Source: Bradymonadia bacterium | GTDB taxonomy: Bacteria > Myxococcota_A > Bradymonadia > UBA7976 > UBA1532 | Direction: 5' to 3' | Assembly (NCBI GenBank): GCA_046290225.1 | Contig: JBKAGE010000001.1 | Location: forward strand, 32,001 to 96,000 | DNA: 64,000 nucleotides | Shown: one piece after another, positions 2,544-49,788 of the stretch | Numbering within the stretch: position 1 is the stretch's first letter | How the letters are laid out: each line of letters starts with the position of its first letter | Translations under genes and position numbers: made by a program | Notes under the pieces: model-generated | The model's input: the letters and a program-made list of their open reading frames with translations, nothing else | Told to the model about the DNA's origin: nothing | Database searches by the model: none

Positions 2544-4223
2544 TCAGAACACCCGCACAGGCCGGCAGCCCATACCGTCACCGCGCTCGTTGGCGGGAAA
2601 ATCCCCACGGCGGGTGGTGCGCAGATCGTAGTCGGGGCGGAACCACGCGCCGCCTCGAGCCACGCGGTGCTTGCCACCCGTGAGACGAGGGCGACCATCC
2701 GCTGGGGCGCCTTCGTAGCCCGCCACGTAGACATCCGAGACCCACTCCCAGACGTTCCCTGCCATATCGCACAAGCCTTGAGCGGTATGCCCTTCTTTCA
2801 GGCTGCACACCGGCTGGGTGCTGCGGCTGCCACAACCTGGTCGATCTCGATCGCGGAACACCGTACGTCCACAAGTGGCCATCGAGTTGCCCCAGGGGAA
2901 CCGGATGGGCTCGCCGGCGCCACGGGCGGCGTACTCCCACTCCGCCTCACTCGGCAGGCGGCCACCGATCCACCAGGAGAAGTCCCTCGCCTGGGCCCAG
3001 CTCAGGCAGTTGATGGGATGGTCGTCTCGATTGGGTCGGCCCCAGTTGCACACCGCTCCCTTGCTCAACCCCTCGTCGCTGCACGCGCCGGCCTCGACGC
3101 AGGCGCGGTACTGCGCCACGGTGACCTCGGCCTGAGCCATGGCGAACCCCGGCAGCTTCACCGTGCGCACCGGGCCCTCGGTGGCGTCGCTGCGAGATCC
3201 CATGTCGAACTCACCGGCGGGGAGCTTCACCCAGGTGACCCCCACCGCCTCGGCGATGGCGTCGGCCCGCTGGCTCGCCTCTTCGATGAGCTTTCGCCAG
3301 GGCTGATAGGTGGCGTTGAACTCTGCGGTGAGCGCCCGCTTCTTCTTTTGGGGCAGCACATCGTCATCGAGCTGGAGCAGCCGCTTGAGCTTGGTCTCGT
3401 CTCGAGCCATGGCCTCGGCCACCTCCACCAGGCGACGGTGCTGAGCGCGGCGCGTGCGGGCCACGCTCACCCATTGGCGGGCGCGTCGCTCTGCTTCGGC
3501 CTTCATCTCTGGAGAGATCTTGTGGTGTCGAGCCACAGCCCACCAGCGCGTGGCCAGCACGTCGGGGTGAGCGCCGGGCTTCTTCTCCATGCGCCGGGCT
3601 TCTTGCAGGCGCTCCAGCAGATCGACGTCCAGCGCGGCGAGGCCCCCTGGGGGCGCAGGCAGCTCACCGGGGATCTGGGCCTCGAAGTTCTGGGGCATCG
3701 GCAAGCCCGAGCCAAAATGGGCGTCGTCTCCGCCCAGAGGGCCAATGGCCGAGAGCAAGCTGGTGCTGATGCCCTCGACGACTTCTTCGAGGCCCTTCAC
3801 GTCTTCAGATCCCCCCTGGCGTTGTGCCAGCAAGGCGCCCGACTCGGTGTTGTAGAGCTTGAGGTTCACCCGCAGGGCGTCACCGAGACGGATGACCTCA
3901 CCAGAGACCACGTAGTGTGCGCCGATGTTGCGGCCGGTCTCCACCTCGCACTCCCCTTCGCAGGCGGCGAGATCCACCCCAGGGGGCAACATCTCCACGA
4001 GGTTCTCCCGAGTGATCACGGTGAACTTGCCCTGGTCGAGCCTCAAGGCCACCCCACGGGAGAGATCGGTCAAGTAGGCCAGAGTGTCTTCTCGAAGCTC
4101 TGCGGCGTTGTGCAGCTCGAGCACGGCGATGCGCTTCGGCGCAGCGGCGCCGGCGGTGGACAAGCAGACAGCGGTGAGCGCGAGGGCGAAGATCAGCCCC
4201 CTCTTGAAGATACTCAGACCCAT
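2544..4223 (-). CDS. Secreted formylglycine-generating enzyme (SUMF1/FGE-sulfatase) domain protein with N-terminal TolB_N/CsgG-like domain
   Basis: Signal peptide; RIAVLEL...ETGRNIGAHYVVSGEV N-terminal domain; FGE motifs F-x-MGS, EVTVAQY, RLPSEAEWEYAARG, GLCDMAGNVWEWV and RGGAW. Start at ATG 4223 after a GGGGA RBS. Confidence 0.85.
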   Translation of the reverse strand: MGLSIFKRGLIFALALTAVCLSTAGAAAPKRIAVLELHNAAELREDTLAYLTDLSRGVALRLDQGKFTVITRENLVEMLPPGVDLAACEGECEVETGRNIGAHYVVSGEVIRLGDALRVNLKLYNTESGALLAQRQGGSEDVKGLEEVVEGISTSLLSAIGPLGGDDAHFGSGLPMPQNFEAQIPGELPAPPGGLAALDVDLLERLQEARRMEKKPGAHPDVLATRWWAVARHHKISPEMKAEAERRARQWVSVARTRRAQHRRLVEVAEAMARDETKLKRLLQLDDDVLPQKKKRALTAEFNATYQPWRKLIEEASQRADAIAEAVGVTWVKLPAGEFDMGSRSDATEGPVRTVKLPGFAMAQAEVTVAQYRACVEAGACSDEGLSKGAVCNWGRPNRDDHPINCLSWAQARDFSWWIGGRLPSEAEWEYAARGAGEPIRFPWGNSMATCGRTVFRDRDRPGCGSRSTQPVCSLKEGHTAQGLCDMAGNVWEWVSDVYVAGYEGAPADGRPRLTGGKHRVARGGAWFRPDYDLRTTRRGDFPANERGDGMGCRPVRVF

Positions 4224-4334
4224 GAAATCCCCTGCGTGCATCGGTGGCAGTACAGACTCAGCAACTTAGCAGACAGATCTACGACGCTGGAGGGGGCAGG
4301 TTCTTCTATGACGGATTCATGACACCGATACGCG

Positions 4335-5621
4335 TCACTCTGAAGGGGCCGCCACGAAAGGATCGCTGAACTTCTCGTCGGCGAGCATGGCGCGATCGGT
4401 GAGCGTCTCCATGAAGGCCACCAGGGCTTCTTTTTCGCTCTGAGTGAAGTCGAAGCGGATCGGCCCGCTCACCCCACGCAACGGCGGGATCAACGTGGGA
4501 TGGTCCTGGATGCCCGTGCTGTAGTGCTCCACCACCTCCATGAGGGTGGCGAAGCGGCCATCGTGCATATAGGGCGGCCGAACAGCGACGTTCTTGAGCG
4601 AAGGCACTTTGAACTTGCCGATGTCGTTGTGGTTCATCGTCGACTCATACACCCCCAGATCATCAATGGACTGGGCGTCGAGGCCGTTGTTGGTCGCCGT
4701 GGACGTGCCCTGACGCCCATTGGGTACAGGGCCAACAAAGGCTTCGGTGGTGTGGCACACGGCGCAATTGGCCTGGCCGCCGCCCTCGACCTGCCTGGCG
4801 ACGAAGAACAGCCGCTTGCCGAGGTTCTCCTGCGCAGTAAAGCCCGGGAAGTTGACTACAGGAGAGTCCACCTCAGCCCTGGCCACATCGTACTTCGAGG
4901 TGGTGCTCACCATGCTCCGGATGAACTGCGCCAGCGCCTTCGAGATCCTGTCGCTCGAGATCGAGTCGTCGCCAAAGGCATCCTCGAACAACTGCGGGTA
5001 GTACGGCTGGCTACGCACAATCTCCTCGAGCCGTTCGAGGGTGAGGCCCATCTCCACATCATCTTGAAAGGGCATGAGCACCTGCGCTTCGAGGCGCTCT
5101 GCCCGCTCGTCCCAGAAGAACTTGCCGCTGAAGTAGAAGCGCCCGTTGGCCAGCCCCATGGAGTGCCGCCGCGTATGACCGCCCTCGAAGCCTTCGCTGT
5201 GCACCTCAGGATCAGAGAAGCCATGGGCCTGCTGATGGCACGAGGCACATGCGATGGTGCCATTGGCGCTCAGCTTCTTGTCGTAGAAGAGCACCCGCCC
5301 CAAAGTGGCCCCAGCATCGGTCACGGGGTTGTCTTCGGGGGTGTTGTCGAAGTCGAGGGCTGCACGCTGAAAACGAAACCGCTCCGGGAACTCGTTCTGA
5401 GTCAGGAAGCGTGGAAGCACGATGTCGGCGTAGGTGAAGGGGGGCTCAGGCAGCACAGGAGCGCCGGGCTGCACCACCGCAGCGTCTTCTGGCGGCACCA
5501 CCCCCATGTCGACCACAGGCGCCATGCCATCGAGGGCAGCATCATCGATGGACGCCGCATCATCGCAGCCCACAACAACCAGTGAGAGCAGCACAATCTG
5601 TGTGGCGCGGATGAGGCTCAT
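4335..5621 (-). CDS. Di-heme cytochrome c peroxidase / MauG-superfamily lipoprotein
   Basis: Two heme c motifs (CASCH, CAVCH), LGRVLFYDKKLS, FFWDERA and FKVPSLKNVAVRPPYMHDG; lipobox VVGC. Confidence 0.9.
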   Translation of the reverse strand: MSLIRATQIVLLSLVVVGCDDAASIDDAALDGMAPVVDMGVVPPEDAAVVQPGAPVLPEPPFTYADIVLPRFLTQNEFPERFRFQRAALDFDNTPEDNPVTDAGATLGRVLFYDKKLSANGTIACASCHQQAHGFSDPEVHSEGFEGGHTRRHSMGLANGRFYFSGKFFWDERAERLEAQVLMPFQDDVEMGLTLERLEEIVRSQPYYPQLFEDAFGDDSISSDRISKALAQFIRSMVSTTSKYDVARAEVDSPVVNFPGFTAQENLGKRLFFVARQVEGGGQANCAVCHTTEAFVGPVPNGRQGTSTATNNGLDAQSIDDLGVYESTMNHNDIGKFKVPSLKNVAVRPPYMHDGRFATLMEVVEHYSTGIQDHPTLIPPLRGVSGPIRFDFTQSEKEALVAFMETLTDRAMLADEKFSDPFVAAPSE

Positions 5622-5639
5622 GCGTTCCCTCAATGTGGT

Positions 5640-6485
5640 CTACCCGTCTTCGAGCTCACCTGACTTGCCCACGTTGAAGCTGAAGCTGCGCTCGCCGCTG
5701 GTCAAGGTCACCTTGCTCACCGCATCGTCGACACGCTCGAACTCCATGGTGATGGTACGCACAGGCGTCGTGAGAATGTAGGTGCCCGCCTGGGGCATGG
5801 CATCTTGCCCGCGCATCTGCACTCCATTGCTGGCCAAGCTCCACACAAGGCCGTCCTCGGCCCATCCCCATGTGCTGTCTCCGTCGATGAGCATGCCCCC
5901 AGAGATGCCAGCGTCGGGATCTATGAGCCTCTGGGTATGCGTGCCGGCGCCCACCCTGTCGCTTCTGTCTGTCTTCCAGGTGAAGTCGTGGGCCACCTCG
6001 CGGCTCTGCTCGCCGGGGATCCAGGTCACGGTGGCGTTGCCCGTGAGCACGACGGTGCCCTGGGTGAAGTCGGTCCAGGCGTGCTCGACCTGCACACCCT
6101 CGCCGTCATTCCGAGCGATGGTGATGGTGTGGCTGCCACCCCAGGTTCTGTCGCGCCATACGCAGTCGTCGTCGAGGGTGCCATGATCGATGGTGAGCTG
6201 AGCCTTTTCGGCGTCGAGGGCCACCTCGGCACACGGGATCTGACTCTGGTAGAAATCAGCAAGCTCTTCTGCGCCCTTGGCTACGCCCTCGCCAAGGGTG
6301 AACTCGGTGCTGATCTCGATGGACTCGCTGGTGAGGGCACTGGCCTGGCTCGCGGTGATGGCCTGTCGGGCGCCGCTCTCTGCCTCCCCTTTGCTCATCT
6401 CCTGATAGTCCGGTGGTGGGCAACCCCAGAGGCTGCCCACGGCGAGGGTGGCGATGAGGGCGCGGCTCAGTGAAGTGATGTGCAC
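5640..6485 (-). CDS. Hypothetical lipoprotein, beta-strand rich
   Basis: GTG start 7 nt after a GAGGAG RBS and lipobox LWGC. The ORF-track extension to 6920 only translates the upstream repeat element. Confidence 0.75.
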   Translation of the reverse strand: MHITSLSRALIATLAVGSLWGCPPPDYQEMSKGEAESGARQAITASQASALTSESIEISTEFTLGEGVAKGAEELADFYQSQIPCAEVALDAEKAQLTIDHGTLDDDCVWRDRTWGGSHTITIARNDGEGVQVEHAWTDFTQGTVVLTGNATVTWIPGEQSREVAHDFTWKTDRSDRVGAGTHTQRLIDPDAGISGGMLIDGDSTWGWAEDGLVWSLASNGVQMRGQDAMPQAGTYILTTPVRTITMEFERVDDAVSKVTLTSGERSFSFNVGKSGELEDG

Positions 6486-6532
6486 GGTGGATCTCCTCGA
6501 AGGTGTGAAGCCTGTTTCGAATGCACAGTACA

Positions 6533-6547
6533 GCACTCGCCATGCCA
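6533..6547 (-). promoter_or_regulatory. Putative sigma54 (-24/-12) promoter for the 5640-6485 lipoprotein gene
   Basis: Minus strand reads TGGCAT-GGCGA-GTGC with the exact GG-N10-GC spacing, about 50 bp upstream of the start. Confidence 0.5.
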
Positions 6548-6719
6548 ATTGCGCGTATGGCCATTCTTCGGGGGGTTGGGTGGACAGTGTCAACGGGGGG
6601 TTACAGAGGGGGCGTGTCTGGTGCTTTTGTTGTGGTGTATTCGGGGGCCCGCTTCGCGGGTAAGAGAGTTTTCGGGCACGGGCACGGGCACGGGCACGGG
6701 CACGAGTTTTACGGGTGTG

Positions 6720-6923
6720 GACAGTGCAGCCTGAGGCTGCATGTCTTGGAGCGAGTGTAGGCCTGCGTAGCCGGCCGGAGGGAGCGGAAAGGCACCCGAA
6801 GGGCTGGCCACTGTTCGACCTGACAGTGCAGCCTGAGGCTGCATGTCTTGGAGCGAGTGTAGGCCTGCGTAGCCGGCCGGAGGGAGCGGAAAGACACCCG
6901 GAGGGCTGGCCACTGGTCAACCT
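6720..6923. repeat. Two tandem 102-bp REP/REPIN-like palindromic units
   Basis: 6720-6821 and 6822-6923 differ at 4 of 102 positions. Each has a GACA-G-TGCAGCCT-G-AGGCTGCA-TGTC hairpin and a GTAG-initiated imperfect long hairpin. Confidence 0.9.
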
Positions 6924-7112
6924 GACCCGTGGCCCTGCCTGAACTCAGGACGAAGGCTGCAATTGAAGCTGAGATGATGTGTTTCAGAACGACCTGAGAG
7001 TTCAGGTCTTGAAGTACACGGAGGTCCAAAACCTCCACCGAGAACAATGTGGGGCTGAGTAGAGCCTCCACCATTACAGACCCACGAGCGGAGCCATGCA
7101 GGGCCACGGGTC
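6924..7112. ncRNA. Candidate structured RNA/ssDNA element (unassigned)
   Basis: Perfect 15-bp closing stem (6924-6938 / 7098-7112) enclosing several short hairpins. No family recognised and transcription not shown. Confidence 0.35.
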
Positions 7113-7190
7113 CAGGTACGTATCAACTCGTGCCCGTGCCCGTGCCCGTGCCCGTGCCCGAAAACTCTCTTACCCGCGAAGCGGGCCCCC

Positions 7191-7775
7191 TCACTTAGCC
7201 AACTGACCCTCCACCGCCTTCACCAAAGCAGGATCCATCGGATCCACCGACGATTCGAAGCGGGCCACCACCTCCCCCTTGGGGCTCACCAGGAACTTGG
7301 TGAAGTTCCAGCGGACCTCCCCCTGAGTCTTCGAGGACTTCTCCGTGAGCAGAGTGTAGAGCGGGGCCTTCTCGGGGCCCTTGGCGTGCACCTTGTCGAA
7401 GAGCGGGAAGGTGATCGAGAAGTTGTCGGCGACGAAACCTTGGATCATCTTCGCGTCGCCGGGCTCCTGACCACCGAAGTCGTTCGACGGGAAGGCCAGC
7501 ACCACCAGCCCCTTGTCCTTGTAGGTGCGGTGCAGGCGCTCCAGACCCGCGTACTGCGGGGTGAAACCACACTGCGAGGCCGTGTTGACGATGAGCATCG
7601 CCTTGCCTGCGTAGTCTTTGAGGCTCACCGGCTTGCCTTGGATGTCAGTCACCGTGAGGGCGTGAATCGGCGCTGTTTGAGCAGCGGGCTTCTCGGCGGC
7701 AGGCTCGGCGCAGATGGGGGTGGCCCAGAAGGCCAGGGCGCCGGTGAGGGCGAGCATCAGGTGGGTGGGGCGCAT
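7191..7775 (-). CDS. Secreted glutathione peroxidase family protein
   Basis: Motifs NTASQCGFTPQY, VLAFPSNDFGGQEPG and WNFTKFLV; N-terminal signal peptide; GGAGG-like region absent but GAGG RBS upstream. Confidence 0.93.
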   Translation of the reverse strand: MRPTHLMLALTGALAFWATPICAEPAAEKPAAQTAPIHALTVTDIQGKPVSLKDYAGKAMLIVNTASQCGFTPQYAGLERLHRTYKDKGLVVLAFPSNDFGGQEPGDAKMIQGFVADNFSITFPLFDKVHAKGPEKAPLYTLLTEKSSKTQGEVRWNFTKFLVSPKGEVVARFESSVDPMDPALVKAVEGQLAK

Positions 7776-7866
7776 GGAGGACCTCTCGAATCAGTGTGCC
7801 CTTCAGAGATGAGCACTTCGAGAGATGGTCGCGCGTTCAGGAGAGAGTGGGTGAGTTGTGGGCGGC

Positions 7867-10440
7867 TCAGTCGATGGGCGACATGCCCACCTGCTCGCCG
7901 CCGCTGCTCATGCCCAGAGAAATGTAGCTCGTCGACATCGACAGCGTGGAGTAGCTCACGTAGGTCGCAGCATCCCAGATGAGGGAGCTGGAGCCCAAGC
8001 CGTTCCCGTAAACAATCCAGGTGGACTGGGTGCTGGTCACCGAGAGGCTGCTGTAATCGTTGAGCATCAGGCTGCTGAAGTCGCTGGGGATCGAGCTCGA
8101 CCCCAACCCGTTGCCGAAGGAGTACATCATCGCCTCCTGCGTCTGGTACATCAGCGTCCAGTTGGCGTCGAAGACGAGAGAGCTCGAACCCAGGCCATTG
8201 CCGTCGGCGATGGCGGCGGCTTCGTCATTCTCAAACCGGGTGGAGTTCAGCACCGAGACCCCTGGGGGCAGGGCCGTGGCCGGACCCAGGTTCCGCACGT
8301 TGTAGGTGACATCGGTGCTGTTGCCGGTTCTGCCGAAGAAGTGCTCGGCGATCTCCGAGTCGGGGTTCAGGGCGAAGATCACCCCGCGGCGCTCACCCTC
8401 TGCGTTGAGGATCGCCTGAGCCTCACCCTGGCTGAGGCCATAGTAGCCCAGAGCGGGAGAGGCCCAGCGGTGCATGTCGTCAGCAGCTTCTCGCTGTACC
8501 CGGTCGACGAAGAAGGTGGCCAGCTTGCCCGGCTCGTTGGGCAACTCGGCGGAATACACCAGACAATGATCCGAGCCTGCCTGAACCGAACAGCTCACGC
8601 TGCCTTCTACCTGACCTGACCAATGGCCGAAGATGGTCACGTCTTCAGTGAGCCCTCGGGCATCATCGTCACCGTGGTTCTCACGTACGGTGATGGCCGC
8701 CGCGAGCTTCACCTTGCTCTCGTTGCTCTTCTGCAAGGCGATGGGGCTCACGTGGAACCGCTTGAGCATCGCCAGATCGCCAGGGTAGTTGGCGTGATCG
8801 CGGTACAGCAGGGCCAGTGCAGGGCGCATCACCCCGTTGCCGTGGTTGGGCGAGAAGCCAGCACCCTGGCGCTCGCCTGTGGCGGAGATGATGGGTCGGA
8901 TCAGCTCTCGGGGGATCCCACGCTCGATCATGAGGGCGGCGAGGCCGGTGACCGCCACGGCGGCCTGTGAGGTGCCCGCAGCCATCCAGTACCCGTAGGA
9001 CCCGGGCTCGCTGGGATCGAAGGCCTCGGCGAGGATGCCGTCGACGATGCCGTCTCCGTCAAGGTCGCTGGCCATGTTCCCGCCGGGGGCGAGGATCTCC
9101 AGAGCCGTACCGGTGTTGCTGTACTCCGCAACAGAAGGCACCACGGTGGTCCGATCCCGGTAGGTCGGGCGGTCGTGGGCACCCACGGCGATCACGTGGG
9201 GCGCAGCAGCGGGCCAGCCTACCTGATCAGCGCCAGAGTTACCTGCGGAGCCCACCATGATGCTGCCCGCCTCGGAGGCATGACGCAGCGCCCGCTGCAT
9301 CATCTGACCCGGCTGATAGCCGACGCCGAAGGACAAGCTCATGTTGATGACATCTGCCCCCTGATCGGCGGCGTAGATCAAGCCCTCGGAGACCTGGAAC
9401 TCGGTGCCGCTCAACTCGGCGCCGAGGACCTTCACCGGCAAGATACGCGCGCCCACGGCGTAGCCGCGAGTCAGGGCCCCACACCGGGGATCGGCGCCGA
9501 GCAGCGAGGCGAGGTGGGTGCCGTGCTGGTGATCGTCGGTGGGATCAGCATCGTCGTTGACGAAGTCGTACCCGTCGCCACGCTCGGTGCAGCCCAGAGA
9601 GGGCGCATCTGCGAGGCCACTGTCCAAGATCGCCACCGTGACACTGCTGGCCCGAGGCACGACCTGGAAAGCCGTGGGCCACCCGTCGGCCTGCAATCGG
9701 CTCAGGCCCTGCATGTGCCACATCAGACCCGCCAGAGGCGGCGCATCGACACTCGTGAGCTCGGGGGCCTGCAAACCCTCGAAGAGAATTTGATCAGCCT
9801 CCTGCATCTGCCCGACGGCCAGCGCTTCGTTGGCACCCAGGCCGGCATCAGCCGCCTTATCCTTATCCTTATCCTTATCCGTTGCGCCGTAGGCGATGGC
9901 GTTGGGATCAGCGCTTTCAACACCAGGCAAACGACTCACAGTCTGCAGCGCGAGGGCGAGATCGCCCCCATCTGTCAGACGCACGCGCCAGATGCCCAGA
10001 ATCTCGTTATGTTGCAGGACCTCGACGTGGGCAGCCTCCCAGATGGCTGCTCGCGCCGCGGCGTCAACGTGCTGGCCCACACGGACCAGCATCTCACCCC
10101 GGGCCACCTCGACGACGTGCTTGCCGTACTCGAGGGCCTCGACCTCGGGGGTGCCAGGGGCGCGGTTCTCTCCAGGACCGGGCTCGATGGCGTTCTGAAT
10201 GATGCGTTGAGCGAAGGCGGCCTGTTGAGCCCTCTCCGCACGCTCGAGGGGGGTGATGTCCCCCCCTCCACCGTGGCTGCCCCCTTCGGCGACGAAGGGG
10301 TGGTGCTCGTTCGTCTGGCTCCCGTCTCCAGAATGGCCTTGCTCGCCGCCGAGCGACAGAAGCATCGCGCCGGCGGCCAAACCCGCAAGTGGGAGAGTCC
10401 AGCGCCGATTGCGCTGCCCTGATGGCAAGCCTCTCTTCAT
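7867..10440 (-). CDS. Secreted S8 (subtilisin-like) serine peptidase with propeptide and repeated C-terminal tail
   Basis: Catalytic triad motifs ILDSG, HGTHLA and GTSQAA; oxyanion motif SAGN; GAGGAGG RBS before ATG 10440. Confidence 0.9.
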   Translation of the reverse strand: MKRGLPSGQRNRRWTLPLAGLAAGAMLLSLGGEQGHSGDGSQTNEHHPFVAEGGSHGGGGDITPLERAERAQQAAFAQRIIQNAIEPGPGENRAPGTPEVEALEYGKHVVEVARGEMLVRVGQHVDAAARAAIWEAAHVEVLQHNEILGIWRVRLTDGGDLALALQTVSRLPGVESADPNAIAYGATDKDKDKDKAADAGLGANEALAVGQMQEADQILFEGLQAPELTSVDAPPLAGLMWHMQGLSRLQADGWPTAFQVVPRASSVTVAILDSGLADAPSLGCTERGDGYDFVNDDADPTDDHQHGTHLASLLGADPRCGALTRGYAVGARILPVKVLGAELSGTEFQVSEGLIYAADQGADVINMSLSFGVGYQPGQMMQRALRHASEAGSIMVGSAGNSGADQVGWPAAAPHVIAVGAHDRPTYRDRTTVVPSVAEYSNTGTALEILAPGGNMASDLDGDGIVDGILAEAFDPSEPGSYGYWMAAGTSQAAVAVTGLAALMIERGIPRELIRPIISATGERQGAGFSPNHGNGVMRPALALLYRDHANYPGDLAMLKRFHVSPIALQKSNESKVKLAAAITVRENHGDDDARGLTEDVTIFGHWSGQVEGSVSCSVQAGSDHCLVYSAELPNEPGKLATFFVDRVQREAADDMHRWASPALGYYGLSQGEAQAILNAEGERRGVIFALNPDSEIAEHFFGRTGNSTDVTYNVRNLGPATALPPGVSVLNSTRFENDEAAAIADGNGLGSSSLVFDANWTLMYQTQEAMMYSFGNGLGSSSIPSDFSSLMLNDYSSLSVTSTQSTWIVYGNGLGSSSLIWDAATYVSYSTLSMSTSYISLGMSSGGEQVGMSPID

Positions 10441-10560
10441 ATGTTTCCTCCTCAGCAGCCACACGTGTGGCGTCAGCAAAGGAAAAAACGGAACCTTCAG
10501 AAGCAAACTTGAGACACTTTAGAAAAAAGTGAGTCAGGAGCGACCCCCATTGGCTCGAAA

Positions 10561-22421: not shown

Positions 22422-22736
22422 ACATCTATCTCCTGTTGTGCCATACTTCTGGCACACAAACAGTCTAGAGCAGTATAAGGAAGGAACTGATACGGCAGGC
22501 GAAGAACATCGGCGAGAGGCCACGTGAAGAAAGCGCAGGCGATGCCAAAGCATCACCGAGCATTTCTGAGCTTGGAATCTCGTCGATGGGCGAGCCTGGT
22601 GTGTCAGGTCATTCCTTATACTGCTCTATTCCTTGTGAATCGCGAACCTCTGAGCAAGAACGCTCAGGATCAGAGCAGCCACAATTGGCCAGTATTCATC
22701 AGTCATCTATGGTGAGGGAGATTTCAGTGGCTCACA

Positions 22737-27156: not shown

Positions 27157-28194
27157 ATGTATGCACTCACCCGCCCACTGCTCTTCTCCTTGTCGCCGGA
27201 GCGCGCCCACAATCTGGTCATGGGCAGCCTCGCCGCCGCGGGCCCCCTCGCCCGGCTCACCGCACGGCTCACTTCGGGCACACCAGATCCCGCGCTGGCG
27301 ACGGAGATCGCCGGCCTGAAGCTGCCGAGCCCGGTGGGGCTCGCTGCAGGCCTCGACAAAGATGGGCGGCTGATCCCCTTCTGGCCTGCGCTGGGGTTTG
27401 GGTTCATCGAGGTGGGTACGGTGACGGCCCACCCTCAGGCGGGCAACCCCAAGCCCCGCATGTTCCGGTTTCCCGAGCAGAGGGCTCTCATCAACCGGAT
27501 GGGGTTCAACAATCAGGGCAGCGCTGCCCTCGCCGAGCGTCTCAAGCGCTTGCGAGAAAGCGGGCCCGAGCTGCCCGTGCCTCTGGGCGTCAATCTGGGC
27601 AAGTCGAAGATCACCCCCCTCGAAGACGCCGTAGAGGACTACGCCATCAGCACTGAGCGGGTGGCCCGCTACGCCGACTATCTGGTCATCAACGTCAGCT
27701 CACCGAACACACCCGGGCTGCGCAGCCTGCAGGGCGCCGAAACCCTGGGTGAGATCGTCGCCGCCGTGGTGGCTCGCCGAGAGGGCCGCCCAGTCTTCGT
27801 GAAGCTGGCGCCCGATCTCACCTTCGAGGCCCTCGACGAGGCCGTGGCGGTGGCAGAAGACAACGGCGCGGAAGGCATCATCGCCACCAACACCACCATC
27901 GAGCGCCACGGCATCACCGAGGATGTGGGCAATGGCGGGCTCTCCGGAGCGCCCCTGCGCCCTCGAGCCCTCGAGGTGGTCCGTCATGTGGTGCCGAAAA
28001 CGAAGCTGCCGGTGATCGCCGTGGGGGGCATCTCCACGGCAGCCCATGTGCTCGAAGCGTTGGAGGCGGGCGCCAAAGCGGTGCAGATCTACTCGGCCCT
28101 GATCTTCGAGGGCCCAGGGCTGGTCAAGCGCCTCAACCGCGGCATCGCCGACGGTTTGGGCCCGGGGCTGCTCAAGGCGCCAGGCGACCGCTGA
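27157..28194 (+). CDS. pyrD: Quinone-dependent dihydroorotate dehydrogenase
   Basis: GLAAGLDKDG, GNPKPRMFR, INRMGFNN, NVSSPNTPGLR, KLAPD, ATNTT and GGLSG. Confidence 0.97.
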   Translation: MYALTRPLLFSLSPERAHNLVMGSLAAAGPLARLTARLTSGTPDPALATEIAGLKLPSPVGLAAGLDKDGRLIPFWPALGFGFIEVGTVTAHPQAGNPKPRMFRFPEQRALINRMGFNNQGSAALAERLKRLRESGPELPVPLGVNLGKSKITPLEDAVEDYAISTERVARYADYLVINVSSPNTPGLRSLQGAETLGEIVAAVVARREGRPVFVKLAPDLTFEALDEAVAVAEDNGAEGIIATNTTIERHGITEDVGNGGLSGAPLRPRALEVVRHVVPKTKLPVIAVGGISTAAHVLEALEAGAKAVQIYSALIFEGPGLVKRLNRGIADGLGPGLLKAPGDR

Positions 28195-29167
28195 GATACT
28201 GCGCCACACGCTCGATGGATTCGGGGCGCTCGCCGAACATACGGGTGCCGTGGGCCCCAGGATCGAACTCCTCAAAATTCCAGATCTGCGGGGCGCCCTC
28301 TTGGAAGCCCGCACTCCATGCCCGCTCCGCTGTGGAGAAGACGAACTGCATGTGCTGTTGATCGAGGGTGGCTCGGTGATCAGCGATGTTGTTCTGGTTC
28401 TCGGTGTACCCGCCCCCAGTGAGCAGTACGAGGGCCCGAAGGGGCAGCGCCCCCTCGCCGAGGGTGTAGTCGAGGATGGAGGTGGTGCCGTTCGATGCGC
28501 CCACCAGGGCCAGACGGCTGCCATCGATGGCACATGGTGCCTCGTCGTTGAGCCAGCGCAAGGCCGCGACGACATCGAGACGCCCCTTGGGGCCTTCATA
28601 GGCTTCTTGAGCCACGCCTTCGGAACCGCCAGCCCCCCGACGATCGACGTTGAGCACCGTGATGCCGGCGCTGGTCAGGGCGTCGATGAAGGCCCGGGGG
28701 TAGTTGCTGCGATCATTGCTCGGCGGGATCATGTGGAACAACGCCACGGCAGGAGCGCCGGTTTGAGCGGCGGGATACCAGTCTGCCTGGAGCGTGACAC
28801 CGTCTTCTGTGGTGAAGGAGACCGGCCCTGCAGGTTGATTGCACGCCACCGGGGCAGCAGCATCAGGAGCAGACGCAGCATCTGAGCCGCCCATGGCGCC
28901 GGCATCTGCTGGCCCGGGCTGTCCCGCTGCGCCGCCCTGGCCACCGGCATTCTGGCCACCAGCGTTTTGGCCACCAGCATTCTGACCGCCTGCGTTTTGA
29001 CCCCCAGTGTTTTGACCCCCAGTGTTCTGGCCACCGGTGTTCTGGCCACCAGAGGCGCCCTGACCTGCAGCTCCAGTCCCACCGGCAGCGCCGTCATCGT
29101 CATCGTCACAGCCAGGGGTCCACAGACACACCGCGCCGAGCGCCACCATCAACCAGAATTGCCGCAC
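28172..29167 (-). CDS. Alpha/beta hydrolase lipoprotein with a GGQN(T/A) repeat linker
   Basis: AAGGA RBS before GTG; lipobox-like TPGC; nucleophile motif GASNG; His motif GAHGT. Confidence 0.8.
   Translation of the reverse strand: MRQFWLMVALGAVCLWTPGCDDDDDGAAGGTGAAGQGASGGQNTGGQNTGGQNTGGQNAGGQNAGGQNAGGQNAGGQGGAAGQPGPADAGAMGGSDAASAPDAAAPVACNQPAGPVSFTTEDGVTLQADWYPAAQTGAPAVALFHMIPPSNDRSNYPRAFIDALTSAGITVLNVDRRGAGGSEGVAQEAYEGPKGRLDVVAALRWLNDEAPCAIDGSRLALVGASNGTTSILDYTLGEGALPLRALVLLTGGGYTENQNNIADHRATLDQQHMQFVFSTAERAWSAGFQEGAPQIWNFEEFDPGAHGTRMFGERPESIERVAQYLSGRLAP
28937..29050 (-). repeat. In-frame 15-bp degenerate tandem repeat encoding (GGQN[T/A])7
   Basis: Translated run GGQNT x3, GGQNA x4, then GGQ. 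Confidence 0.9.
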
Positions 29168-29300
29168 GGGATTCCTTTCTGAACGCGCCCGCTCACCGCC
29201 TGGTGGCTGAGCGCATGCTCGATTCTTGGGGCCGCTTGCCTTCGGTGTTGCCTTCACAGGCCCCATCGCCCATCGTTCGGCCCAGCAACGAGGGAGCCTG

Positions 29301-30161
29301 ATGTCGGACTTTCTGCCCACGTATACTCTGCTGCCCCCCGGGGATGTTACACCGAGCCACACCGCCGTGGTGCTCCACGGCATCTGGGGCTCGCGCCGGA
29401 ACTGGCAATCGTACATGCGCCGCATGTGCGAGCGACACCCCGACTGGCGATTCGTGCTCGTCGATCTGCGCAACCACGGTGACGCGCCGCCGGCACCTGC
29501 GCCTCATACCCTCTCCGCCTGCGCCGACGACATCGCCCGGTTGATGGATCACCTCGAGATGCGCCCTGACGTCATCATGGGCCACTCCTTCGGGGGCAAG
29601 GTGGCCATGGCCTTCGGTGATCAATATCCCGATGGTACCGACGCCATCTGGGTGCTCGACGCCTTGCCCGGTGCCCGAGTGGGTGTCGAAGCCGCAGACC
29701 AGGGTGAGGCGGTCCGGCTCATCGAGAACCTCCGCGCTGTTCCGCTCCCACTGGAGAGCCGAGAGGCCCTCGTCGAGGCCTTGAGCGCTCGCGGGTTCAG
29801 CCAGATGATCGCCCAGTGGATGACCACTAACCTGGTCCGCGGCCAGCATGACGGCGCTCAGGGCTTCGTGTGGCGCTTCAACATCGACGGCATCGAGGCC
29901 ATGCTCGCCGACTACTTCCAGCACGACTACTGGCCTTTCCTCGAAGCGAGAGCTGCGGGGTTCCCAGGGCCTGAGATCAAGCTGCTTCGGGCGGCGCGGA
30001 GCGATCGCTGGACCCCGGAGATCATCGCCCGGTTCGAAGAGATAGCCTCCGAGCACGTGAGCGTGCATCTGCTCCCCGACGCCGGTCATTGGGTGCACGT
30101 CGACAACCCCGAAGGCCTCGCCATCCTGCTCACCGAATGGTTCGACGCCGTCGGCCACTGA
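29301..30161 (+). CDS. Alpha/beta hydrolase (YbfF/ABHD11-like esterase)
   Basis: LHGIWGS, DLRNHG, GHSFGGKVA and AGHWVHVDNP. Confidence 0.9.
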   Translation: MSDFLPTYTLLPPGDVTPSHTAVVLHGIWGSRRNWQSYMRRMCERHPDWRFVLVDLRNHGDAPPAPAPHTLSACADDIARLMDHLEMRPDVIMGHSFGGKVAMAFGDQYPDGTDAIWVLDALPGARVGVEAADQGEAVRLIENLRAVPLPLESREALVEALSARGFSQMIAQWMTTNLVRGQHDGAQGFVWRFNIDGIEAMLADYFQHDYWPFLEARAAGFPGPEIKLLRAARSDRWTPEIIARFEEIASEHVSVHLLPDAGHWVHVDNPEGLAILLTEWFDAVGH

Positions 30162-49572: not shown

Positions 49573-49621
49573 GCTCGCCTCGTGTCGAATCCGTGTCGAA
49601 ATCTAGAATCTGCAGGGTTTA

Positions 49622-49780
49622 GAGGTCCTAACACAACGGCGGACCGAGTCAGGAGGGTGAGGCGCGAGTGAGGCAGTCGAAAGAACCGCAGGCGGGCCCA
49701 AAGGCCCGTCGAGGACGCTTTCGGCTGCATCGCGAAGTGCATCACCCTCCTGGCGACGGGAGCTGTTTTGTTAGGAACTC
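49622..49780. mobile_element. 159-bp MITE, possibly IS5-family derived, with a TTA target-site duplication
   Basis: TIRs GAGGTCCTAACACAAC / GTTTTGTTAGGAACTC match at 14 of 16 positions. TTA lies at 49619-49621 and 49781-49783. The interior folds into a long rod. Confidence 0.75.
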
Positions 49781-49788
49781 TTAGATGC

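Follow-up and report, generated by a model that had tools for sequence, protein, structure and literature searches.

A 548-bp non-coding element with perfect 66-nt inverted ends beside a sigma-54-type promoter in a Bradymonadia bacterium: a possible MITE-like insertion

Introduction

Prokaryotic MITEs, to the extent covered by the cited portion of the source, are 50-800 bp long with a duplication of 2-10 bp, and their reported median length is 104 bp (PMC11602168). BrickBuilt of Porphyromonas gingivalis is a MITE that encloses a tandem repeat array; the part of the paper cited here describes 23-nt units, small inverted ends, 19 copies per genome and locations that are always intergenic (PMC4596501). 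For the Correia elements of Neisseria, the section cited reports that the transcribed paired ends are bound or cut by RNase III and that the expression of neighbouring genes is altered (PMC2649163). In Myxococcus xanthus, repeated symmetric PexR sites are found upstream of a sigma-54 promoter of peroxide genes; in the cited excerpt the PexR box is an interrupted 5+6+5 palindrome and the sites are tens of bases apart (PMC12754779).

Here we describe a 548-bp element from a Bradymonadia bacterium, located in a 64-kb window (the whole stretch of 64,000 nucleotides that was analysed). Set against MITEs as portrayed in the cited portion, it is alike in having terminal inverted repeats, no transposase, an intergenic position and a length within 50-800 bp; it is different in being approximately five times the median length, in its 66-nt arms with a microsatellite, in the one copy found and in the lack of a known matching insertion sequence. 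BrickBuilt, as far as the part cited describes it, provides a precedent for a MITE that carries an internal tandem array, although the element of the window has two 102-bp units, 66-nt ends and one copy found. By analogy with the Correia elements, as characterized in the section cited, a small inverted-repeat element beside genes might have an RNase III consequence here as well, but there is no sequence likeness between the two. Compared with the PexR sites of the excerpt, the arms are much further apart (480 bases), and PexR boxes were rejected as activator sites near the element: the window has 13 matches with at most one mismatch, all of them elsewhere.

Correia elements are approximately 100-155 bp long, with shorter repeats, a duplicated TA and hundreds of copies. 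Long inverted ends made partly of short tandem repeats are known from the eukaryotic foldback elements and from Ac/Ds, in which hexamers bind the transposase; these elements are eukaryotic and unrelated in sequence to the one described here, and we know of no bacterial counterpart of foldback or Ac/Ds-type hexamer ends. Among bacterial systems, Tn3-derived miniature elements have ends of about 38 bp that start with GGGG and finish with TAAG, and a 5-bp duplication. Such an origin was rejected: the arm starts with GGGGG, TAAG is found only at bases 19-22 and the 5-bp flanks differ. REPINs consist of two short inverted REP units, approximately 100 bp overall, in many copies and with a RAYT gene; the element, at 548 bp with a 416-bp interior, one copy found and no Y1/HUH protein among 44 ORFs, does not belong there. 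Palindrome elements derived from IS200/IS605 have subterminal hairpins, no inverted ends and a fixed 4-5-nt insertion site, and were discarded as well, in view of the long true inverted ends and the lack of TnpA or TnpB in the window ORFs scanned. Our preferred reading, tentative and with appreciable doubt, sees in it a foldback-type (MITE-like) DNA element that is non-autonomous and represents a family not described before.

Results

Anatomy of the element

An inverted-repeat search of the window found the two arms of the element (Table 1) to be 100% complementary over 66 nt and 416 nt apart; the second-longest inverted repeat of the 64 kb is 43 nt at 74%. From the outside inwards, each arm is composed of GGGGG, a 13-nt hairpin motif and a 13-nt spacer with a terminal T run, and its inner part is made of five GGGCAC units followed by five bases. 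Beyond the perfect 66 nt the likeness between the two sides is only patchy, for approximately 14 bases. The mini-hairpin, with a 5-bp GC stem and a 3-nt loop, was predicted in a single-stranded DNA fold of the arm. The GGGCAC array was scored at 5.3 copies at 6673-6704 and is mirrored at 7129-7160, and an 18-mer made of three units has six matches in the window, all in the two arms, versus 0 expected from 100 shuffles. Canonical G-quadruplex motifs are rare in the window (six on both strands, versus a mean of 15.4 and a range of 8-28 in 50 mononucleotide shuffles), and the element arms are two of the six.

The interior consists of two tandem units, which differ at 4 of 102 positions (96% alike) and each fold into two hairpins, and of a core that is closed by an 18-nt stem with one mismatch and has a GC content of 0.48 in a window of 65% GC. 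Folding of the whole element was compared with that of shuffled sequences and gave z scores of -15.8 and -20.9 for the two strands, mostly due to the arms.

Table 1. Features of the element and its surroundings, in window coordinates
Feature	Position	Strand	Basis or remark
Di-haem cytochrome c peroxidase gene	4335-5633	-	Separated by 6 bp from the lipoprotein gene upstream
Lipoprotein-like gene, no Pfam family	5640-6485	-	Starts with GTG after a GAGGAG ribosome-binding site; 157 bp from the element, on its downstream side
Sigma-54-type -24/-12 box, outside the element	6532-6547	-	Sole pattern match in 64 kb
TC flank, left; possible 2-bp target duplication	6641-6642	.	Sequence
Whole element, 548 bp	6643-7190	.	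Edges defined by the two arms
Left arm, promoter-proximal, 66 nt	6643-6708	+	100% complementary to 7125-7190
Terminal mini-hairpin, left; 5-6 bp stem, 3-nt loop	6648-6660	+	Sequence and single-stranded DNA fold
Five GGGCAC units; canonical G-quadruplex motif	6674-6703	+	Sole + strand G-quadruplex motif of the 64-kb window
Tandem unit 1, 102 bp, two hairpins	6720-6821	+	Repeat and fold analysis
Tandem unit 2, four differences from unit 1	6822-6923	+	Repeat analysis
Core, 189 bp, closed by stem 6924-6941 / 7095-7112	6924-7112	.	GC down to 0.48
Right arm, distal, 66 nt	7125-7190	-	Outer base 7190 touches the peroxidase stop 7191-7193
Five GGGCAC units, mirrored	7130-7159	-	Repeat and G-quadruplex motif scans
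Terminal mini-hairpin, right; GAA loop on the + strand	7173-7185	-	Sequence and single-stranded DNA fold
TC flank, right; GA of the TGA stop on the - strand	7191-7192	.	Sequence
Glutathione peroxidase gene, full length	7191-7775	-	Pfam GSHPx, E 7.6e-34
S8 subtilase gene	7867-10506	-	ORF and Pfam

The arms have 0 differences over 66 nt, including a five-unit microsatellite in each, next to interior units that differ at 4 of 102 positions. By our arithmetic, the chance of finding 0 differences in 66 nt at the divergence of the interior units is approximately 0.07. Judged from this comparison, the arms must be young or kept identical to each other. The identity of all 66 nt, a mutable microsatellite included, beside units diverged by 4% points to recent copying at the DNA level or to ongoing arm-to-arm correction.

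Edges and neighbouring genes

The only repeat at the flanks is the TC on either side, a match of 2 bp that has a chance of 1 in 16; sequence inspection found no direct duplication of 3, 4, 5, 8 or 9 bp. If TC is a target duplication, its length would fall within the 2-10 bp of MITEs. The earlier note on this DNA had claimed exact reverse-complementary 66-nt ends with a hairpin and five GGGCAC hexamers in each, two tandem palindromic units, a separately closed structured core, TC at both ends and a right end set directly against the peroxidase stop codon, and the analysis found each of these features in place (Table 1).

All genes from 2544 to 10506 are on the minus strand, and the order of transcription is S8 subtilase, glutathione peroxidase, the element, the lipoprotein-like gene, cytochrome c peroxidase and a sulfatase-maturase-like gene. 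Residues 37-180 of the 194-residue glutathione peroxidase align to residues 12-157 of a solved homologue of 171 residues, and by this alignment its C-terminus is of natural length. Since the TGA (7193-7191) touches the arm and the gene is full-length, the element truncates no gene. The lipoprotein-like protein is a singleton; its nearest relatives are at most 47% identical, and the few that are named come from Labilithrix or Myxococcota MAGs. No transposase, recombinase, reverse transcriptase or HUH enzyme was found in the 44 window ORFs scanned with Pfam, in which a Pfam family was absent for 13 of the 39 ORFs of the larger scan and for one of the five ORFs of the smaller one.

Two further repeats of the window are within genes. 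A perfect AT-rich CCTTAT hexamer microsatellite (4.3 copies, 9855-9880) is located inside the GC-rich subtilase gene, and an array of 15-bp period (7.7 copies, 82% matches, 28937-29052) is located in an ORF at 28172-29473 (minus strand), where it presumably represents a five-residue protein repeat.

Search for further copies and for an empty site

No second copy of an arm, unit or core was detected in the 64-kb window by 18-mer and 26-mer searches with mismatches or by blastn at word size 7. An exact 22-mer covering spacer and array gave 0 matches in a collection of one genome per species for 185,579 species, and the whole element gave 0 blastn matches in 72,556 plasmid and 50,697 phage records. 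Likewise, arm and interior parts had no second copy in 1.23 Mb of relatives' loci, and a covariance model of the 102-bp unit run over 1.3 Mb returned only the two units themselves, all other rows being at E above 1. These searches reach the window and the reference collections, and the window amounts to at most approximately 0.6% of the genome if the latter is about 10 Mb, an assumed size that is usual for this group (one related contig alone is 5.7 Mb). On that assumption the window search excludes only families of well over 100 copies. The negative results therefore weigh little, because so small a share of the genome was covered, because there is no close relative and because other palindromes of the window are equally copy-less.

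The palindromes in question are two imperfect intergenic ones at 22466-22628 (163 bp, 72% self-complementary) and 49621-49781 (161 bp, 67%). Both start with TAGAG and end with its complement, and they are possibly old TA-flanked MITEs. The same searches of window and loci, used here as a control, found no second copy of either, and their presence suggests that this genome collects such elements.

The relatives' loci are 80 regions around lipoprotein homologues of 34-46% identity from Polyangiaceae, Polyangiales, Labilithrix, Polyangium and a few loosely labelled sources; every one is a MAG of Myxococcota type or a Polyangium record. A glutathione peroxidase, cytochrome c peroxidase or subtilase gene is near the lipoprotein homologue in none of the 80, and a sulfatase-maturase homologue in one. 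As synteny is not conserved, the relatives' loci offer no empty-site comparison.

The earlier note had proposed a recently inserted or actively homogenised non-autonomous cassette of a family mobilised in trans. The first part agrees with the non-coding sequence, sharp edges, identical arms and a promoter region that is intact after removal of the element. The second part gained nothing from the window, reference genomes, plasmids and phages: within this reach the 66-mer occurs only here, an outcome that the note itself had named as refuting its proposal, neither an autonomous copy with an ORF between the arms nor an unpaired arm copy was found, and no second copy, partner or transposase came to light.

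A conserved sigma-54-type promoter and the case for a regulatory palindrome

The GTG start of the lipoprotein gene follows the sigma-54-type box at a distance of 47 nt, and the left arm is 96-161 nt upstream of the box. Of 73 upstream regions of the lipoprotein family (the window and 72 loci whose upstream sequence was long enough), 29 have a box of this type at most 200 nt from the start; the background rate is 0.019 per 200 nt. The loci that carry it include L003, L004, L008, L010, L011, L016, L018, L019, L021-L023, L025, L026, L028, L029 and others, and the box of L022 is almost identical to that of the window. Judged by this conservation, the lipoprotein family, together with the co-transcribed cytochrome c peroxidase of the window, is probably sigma-54 dependent, and the conserved promoter is the firmest by-product of the analysis.

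Without the element and one TC, the spacer would be 155 bp long and would hold a complete sigma-54 promoter region, as in the relatives. This length is typical of the family, since the relatives' upstream gene (often ending ...IFARGDAK) stops 20-190 nt before the box in many loci. A candidate upstream site in the 155-bp spacer resembles, by eye, those of L018, L022 and L025, and the spacers of relatives are comparable in length and lack an element of this kind. The native control region thus looks complete without the element, which fits added DNA, as expected for an insertion. A half-site, G[GT]TCACG, was considered as a candidate activator site: it has 27 occurrences in the 73 upstream regions versus 0.18 expected per 300 nt, an approximately twofold enrichment that is confined to a subset of the loci, and the site as such is absent from the window.

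In the locus L003, the orthologous gene has a 177-bp palindrome (9718-9758 / 9854-9894; 41-nt arms, 90% identity) immediately before its sigma-54 box. It is the sole inverted repeat of at least 30 nt and at least 90% identity within 3 kb in the 80 loci. Its arms contain three G-rich 8-mers after a T run, the same arm design as in the window element (a G-rich short-repeat array plus a T run) on a smaller scale. The loci contain no further copy of the L003 palindrome, and the window arms do not align with those of L003 or L004, hence no homology was detected between them. L004, which shares flanking genes with L003 at 73-90% identity, has only the promoter-proximal array, starting at 9815. A search for inverted pairs of G-rich arrays in the 1.3 Mb of window and loci yielded the window, L003 and one low-scoring spurious pair in L069; both true pairs lie just upstream of orthologous lipoprotein genes. 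The coincidence in L003, which is suggestive only, could be explained equally well by a promoter-linked function or by survival mainly in such spacers, and we estimate the chance of the position at approximately 0.1, given intergenic DNA only. Short-period G/C arrays as a group are not enriched upstream of the lipoprotein family (6 of 73, one of them coding, versus approximately 3 expected).

Other loci gave more distant similarities. In L029, a 23-nt inverted pair is found before the sigma-54 box, 131-213 nt upstream of the lipoprotein homologue; each arm has a perfect 10-bp palindrome, and the arrangement looks like a classical pair of activator sites. In L011, from a Polyangia MAG, a run of three GGGCAC units at 721-758 is 84% identical to the arm over 38 nt (E 9e-5 in 1.2 Mb); it is unpaired, lies in a 79-bp spacer of convergent genes and has flanks somewhat similar to those in the arm. 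A blastn match at L069 7125-7174 was rejected as an arm relative, being the coding tail (Ala/Val-Pro repeats) of the upstream gene; the match is misleading because the GTGCCC reading of the array encodes Val-Pro repeats. Hexamer matches were also discarded in L012 (inside a gene) and in L008 and L023 (short or imperfect).

These observations bear on a different explanation, that the element is a local or domesticated cis-regulatory palindrome of the sigma-54 promoter, with the interior looped out and the GGGCAC arrays acting as sites for an activator or architectural protein or as G-quadruplex switches. The proximal arm is at the right place, as enhancer-binding proteins usually bind at such a distance from sigma-54 promoters, and the box type is the conserved one. 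The position of the only two true inverted array pairs, the retention of just the promoter-proximal array in L004, the pair of palindromic sites at the same place in L029 and the share of the arms among otherwise scarce G-quadruplex motifs all speak in its favour. Binding arrays, however, need no identity over 66 nt that includes hairpin and spacer, and the 416-bp structured interior is left unexplained. Moreover, the window arms fail to align with those of L003 and L004, arrays are not enriched upstream of the family, the L003 coincidence has the sizeable chance estimated above, the Pfam scan of 44 window ORFs revealed no enhancer-binding protein gene, and the candidate native upstream site sits outside the element. 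We consider a regulatory origin unlikely, though likelier than the other alternatives.

Coding, RNA and other explanations

Seven ORFs across the element were compared with Pfam at E up to 1, with nothing meaningful found. For the 132-aa ORF at 6709-7107 (minus strand), a phmmer search of 1.84 billion representative proteins returned one match, the repeat protein P0120 (2623 aa, from an organism of a different kind), with 34% identity to the unit-encoded peptide. The match was judged to be due to chance, since a short WP..R..F....PA.T-like stretch is multiplied by the repeats on both sides. The ORF gave no self-match in this search, which indicates that gene callers had not called it, and its protein is consequently a weak route to further copies. 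The 107-aa ORF at 6590-6913 (minus strand) has no protein relatives. We concluded that the element is non-coding and sharply bounded.

A known RNA family was rejected on the basis of Rfam 15: its 4227 families, searched over 5500-8500 at E up to 1, gave best E values of 0.66 and 0.75, far under the gathering scores, and the whole 64-kb window had 0 matches at gathering scores. There is no tRNA or tmRNA in the element, and a scan of 6200-7900 found 0 sigma-70 promoters and 0 intrinsic terminators. The element might still encode a structured non-coding RNA or serve in processing the 3' end. It would then be transcribed together with the peroxidase gene or behind it, and the long closing stem and the inner hairpins would be the functional parts. 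Extreme folding on both strands would be expected of such a module, as would the nested hairpins and a closed core with GC nearer 0.5, which is common for RNA genes in GC-rich genomes. In addition, the hairpin begins right after the stop codon and no other terminator was found between the two genes. On the other hand, conserved RNA stems do not look like a perfect helix of 66 bp that lacks any wobble or mismatch, and such a helix suggests an origin at the DNA level; besides the negative Rfam result, the unit covariance model, finding itself only in 1.3 Mb, supplied no relatives for covariation, and the element contains no promoter or terminator consensus. An RNA module is for these reasons improbable.

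An invertible DNA switch, in which recombination between the arms flips the 416-bp interior and alters expression of the lipoprotein operon, would account for perfect inverted repeats around a short intergenic segment upstream of exported-protein genes, and repeated recombination would maintain the identity of the arms. We regard it as very unlikely: the 44 window ORFs scanned include neither an invertase nor a recombinase of the tyrosine or serine type, there are 0 sigma-70-like promoters to be flipped inside and the sigma-54 box of the operon is outside the segment, and invertase sites are usually far shorter than 66 nt. An assembly artefact of this metagenome-assembled contig is the least probable explanation of all, for although the lipoprotein is a singleton on one contig with no independent assembly to confirm the region, and short-read assemblers have difficulty with repeats of 66 and 102 bp, the interior itself is not mirrored, the genes on either side are unique, intact and sensibly ordered, and known hairpin artefacts sit at contig ends while the element is at least 6.6 kb inside.

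Discussion

A MITE-like insertion is the most economical reading of this locus, because it brings together the arm identity, the sharp ends, the foreign-looking core, the intact neighbours and the lack of sequence with a function; a small share of the probability goes to none of the readings considered. MITEs are expected to end in inverted repeats of 10-15 bp or more, and those found here are perfect, sharp-edged and 66 nt long; the 548 bp contain ORFs without relatives or families and no Rfam family, and the low-GC core is in keeping with added DNA. Against insertion, the TC repeat is only 2 bp long, no transposase was found among the window ORFs scanned, the ends are unmatched in plasmid and phage records, and the element is single in the window, with 0 copies in the references; arms of 66 nt are also long for a bacterial MITE. 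That the element is mobile and belongs to a mobile family is something we infer from its build. The different palindrome at the same place in L003 hints at a promoter-linked role versus random insertion.

We propose that such an element would have inserted downstream of the glutathione peroxidase gene, in the short spacer that separates this gene from the sigma-54 promoter driving the lipoprotein/cytochrome c peroxidase operon. The insertion point would be the last two bases of the TGA stop codon, and the duplicated TC would restore the stop. The run of five Gs, the very stable mini-hairpin and the five subterminal GGGCAC units may be sites that are bound and cut by a transposase encoded elsewhere, and the two 102-bp units together with the closed core may be passenger DNA. 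Read-through from the peroxidase gene would bring both arms into one RNA, where they could form a perfect 66-bp duplex, a putative RNase III-type substrate. This duplex might lead to termination or processing of the peroxidase message before the downstream operon, which has its own promoter. An influence on RNA processing like that of Correia elements would be reasonable, given the predicted read-through duplex and the fact that no other terminator was found between the genes.

In a bolder version, the element would be the first member of a bacterial foldback-transposon class with G-rich array ends, an ultra-stable mini-hairpin and structured non-coding cargo, and the L003 palindrome would be a second, diverged member; we regard this as a long shot. 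If such a class exists, its members may prefer sigma-54 enhancer regions, or the elements may have been recruited as enhancers.

In the full text of open papers we found no description of MITEs in myxobacteria, nor of the two-unit hexamer string or of such ends, and the design of hairpin plus hexamer array at the ends is unusual. Polyangia have very large genomes that have hardly been studied for mobile DNA. A mobile element would stand for a non-autonomous family so far undescribed in Polyangia-type Myxococcota; an element with a promoter-linked role would instead reveal the architecture of sigma-54 enhancers at peroxide-defence genes of this host group.
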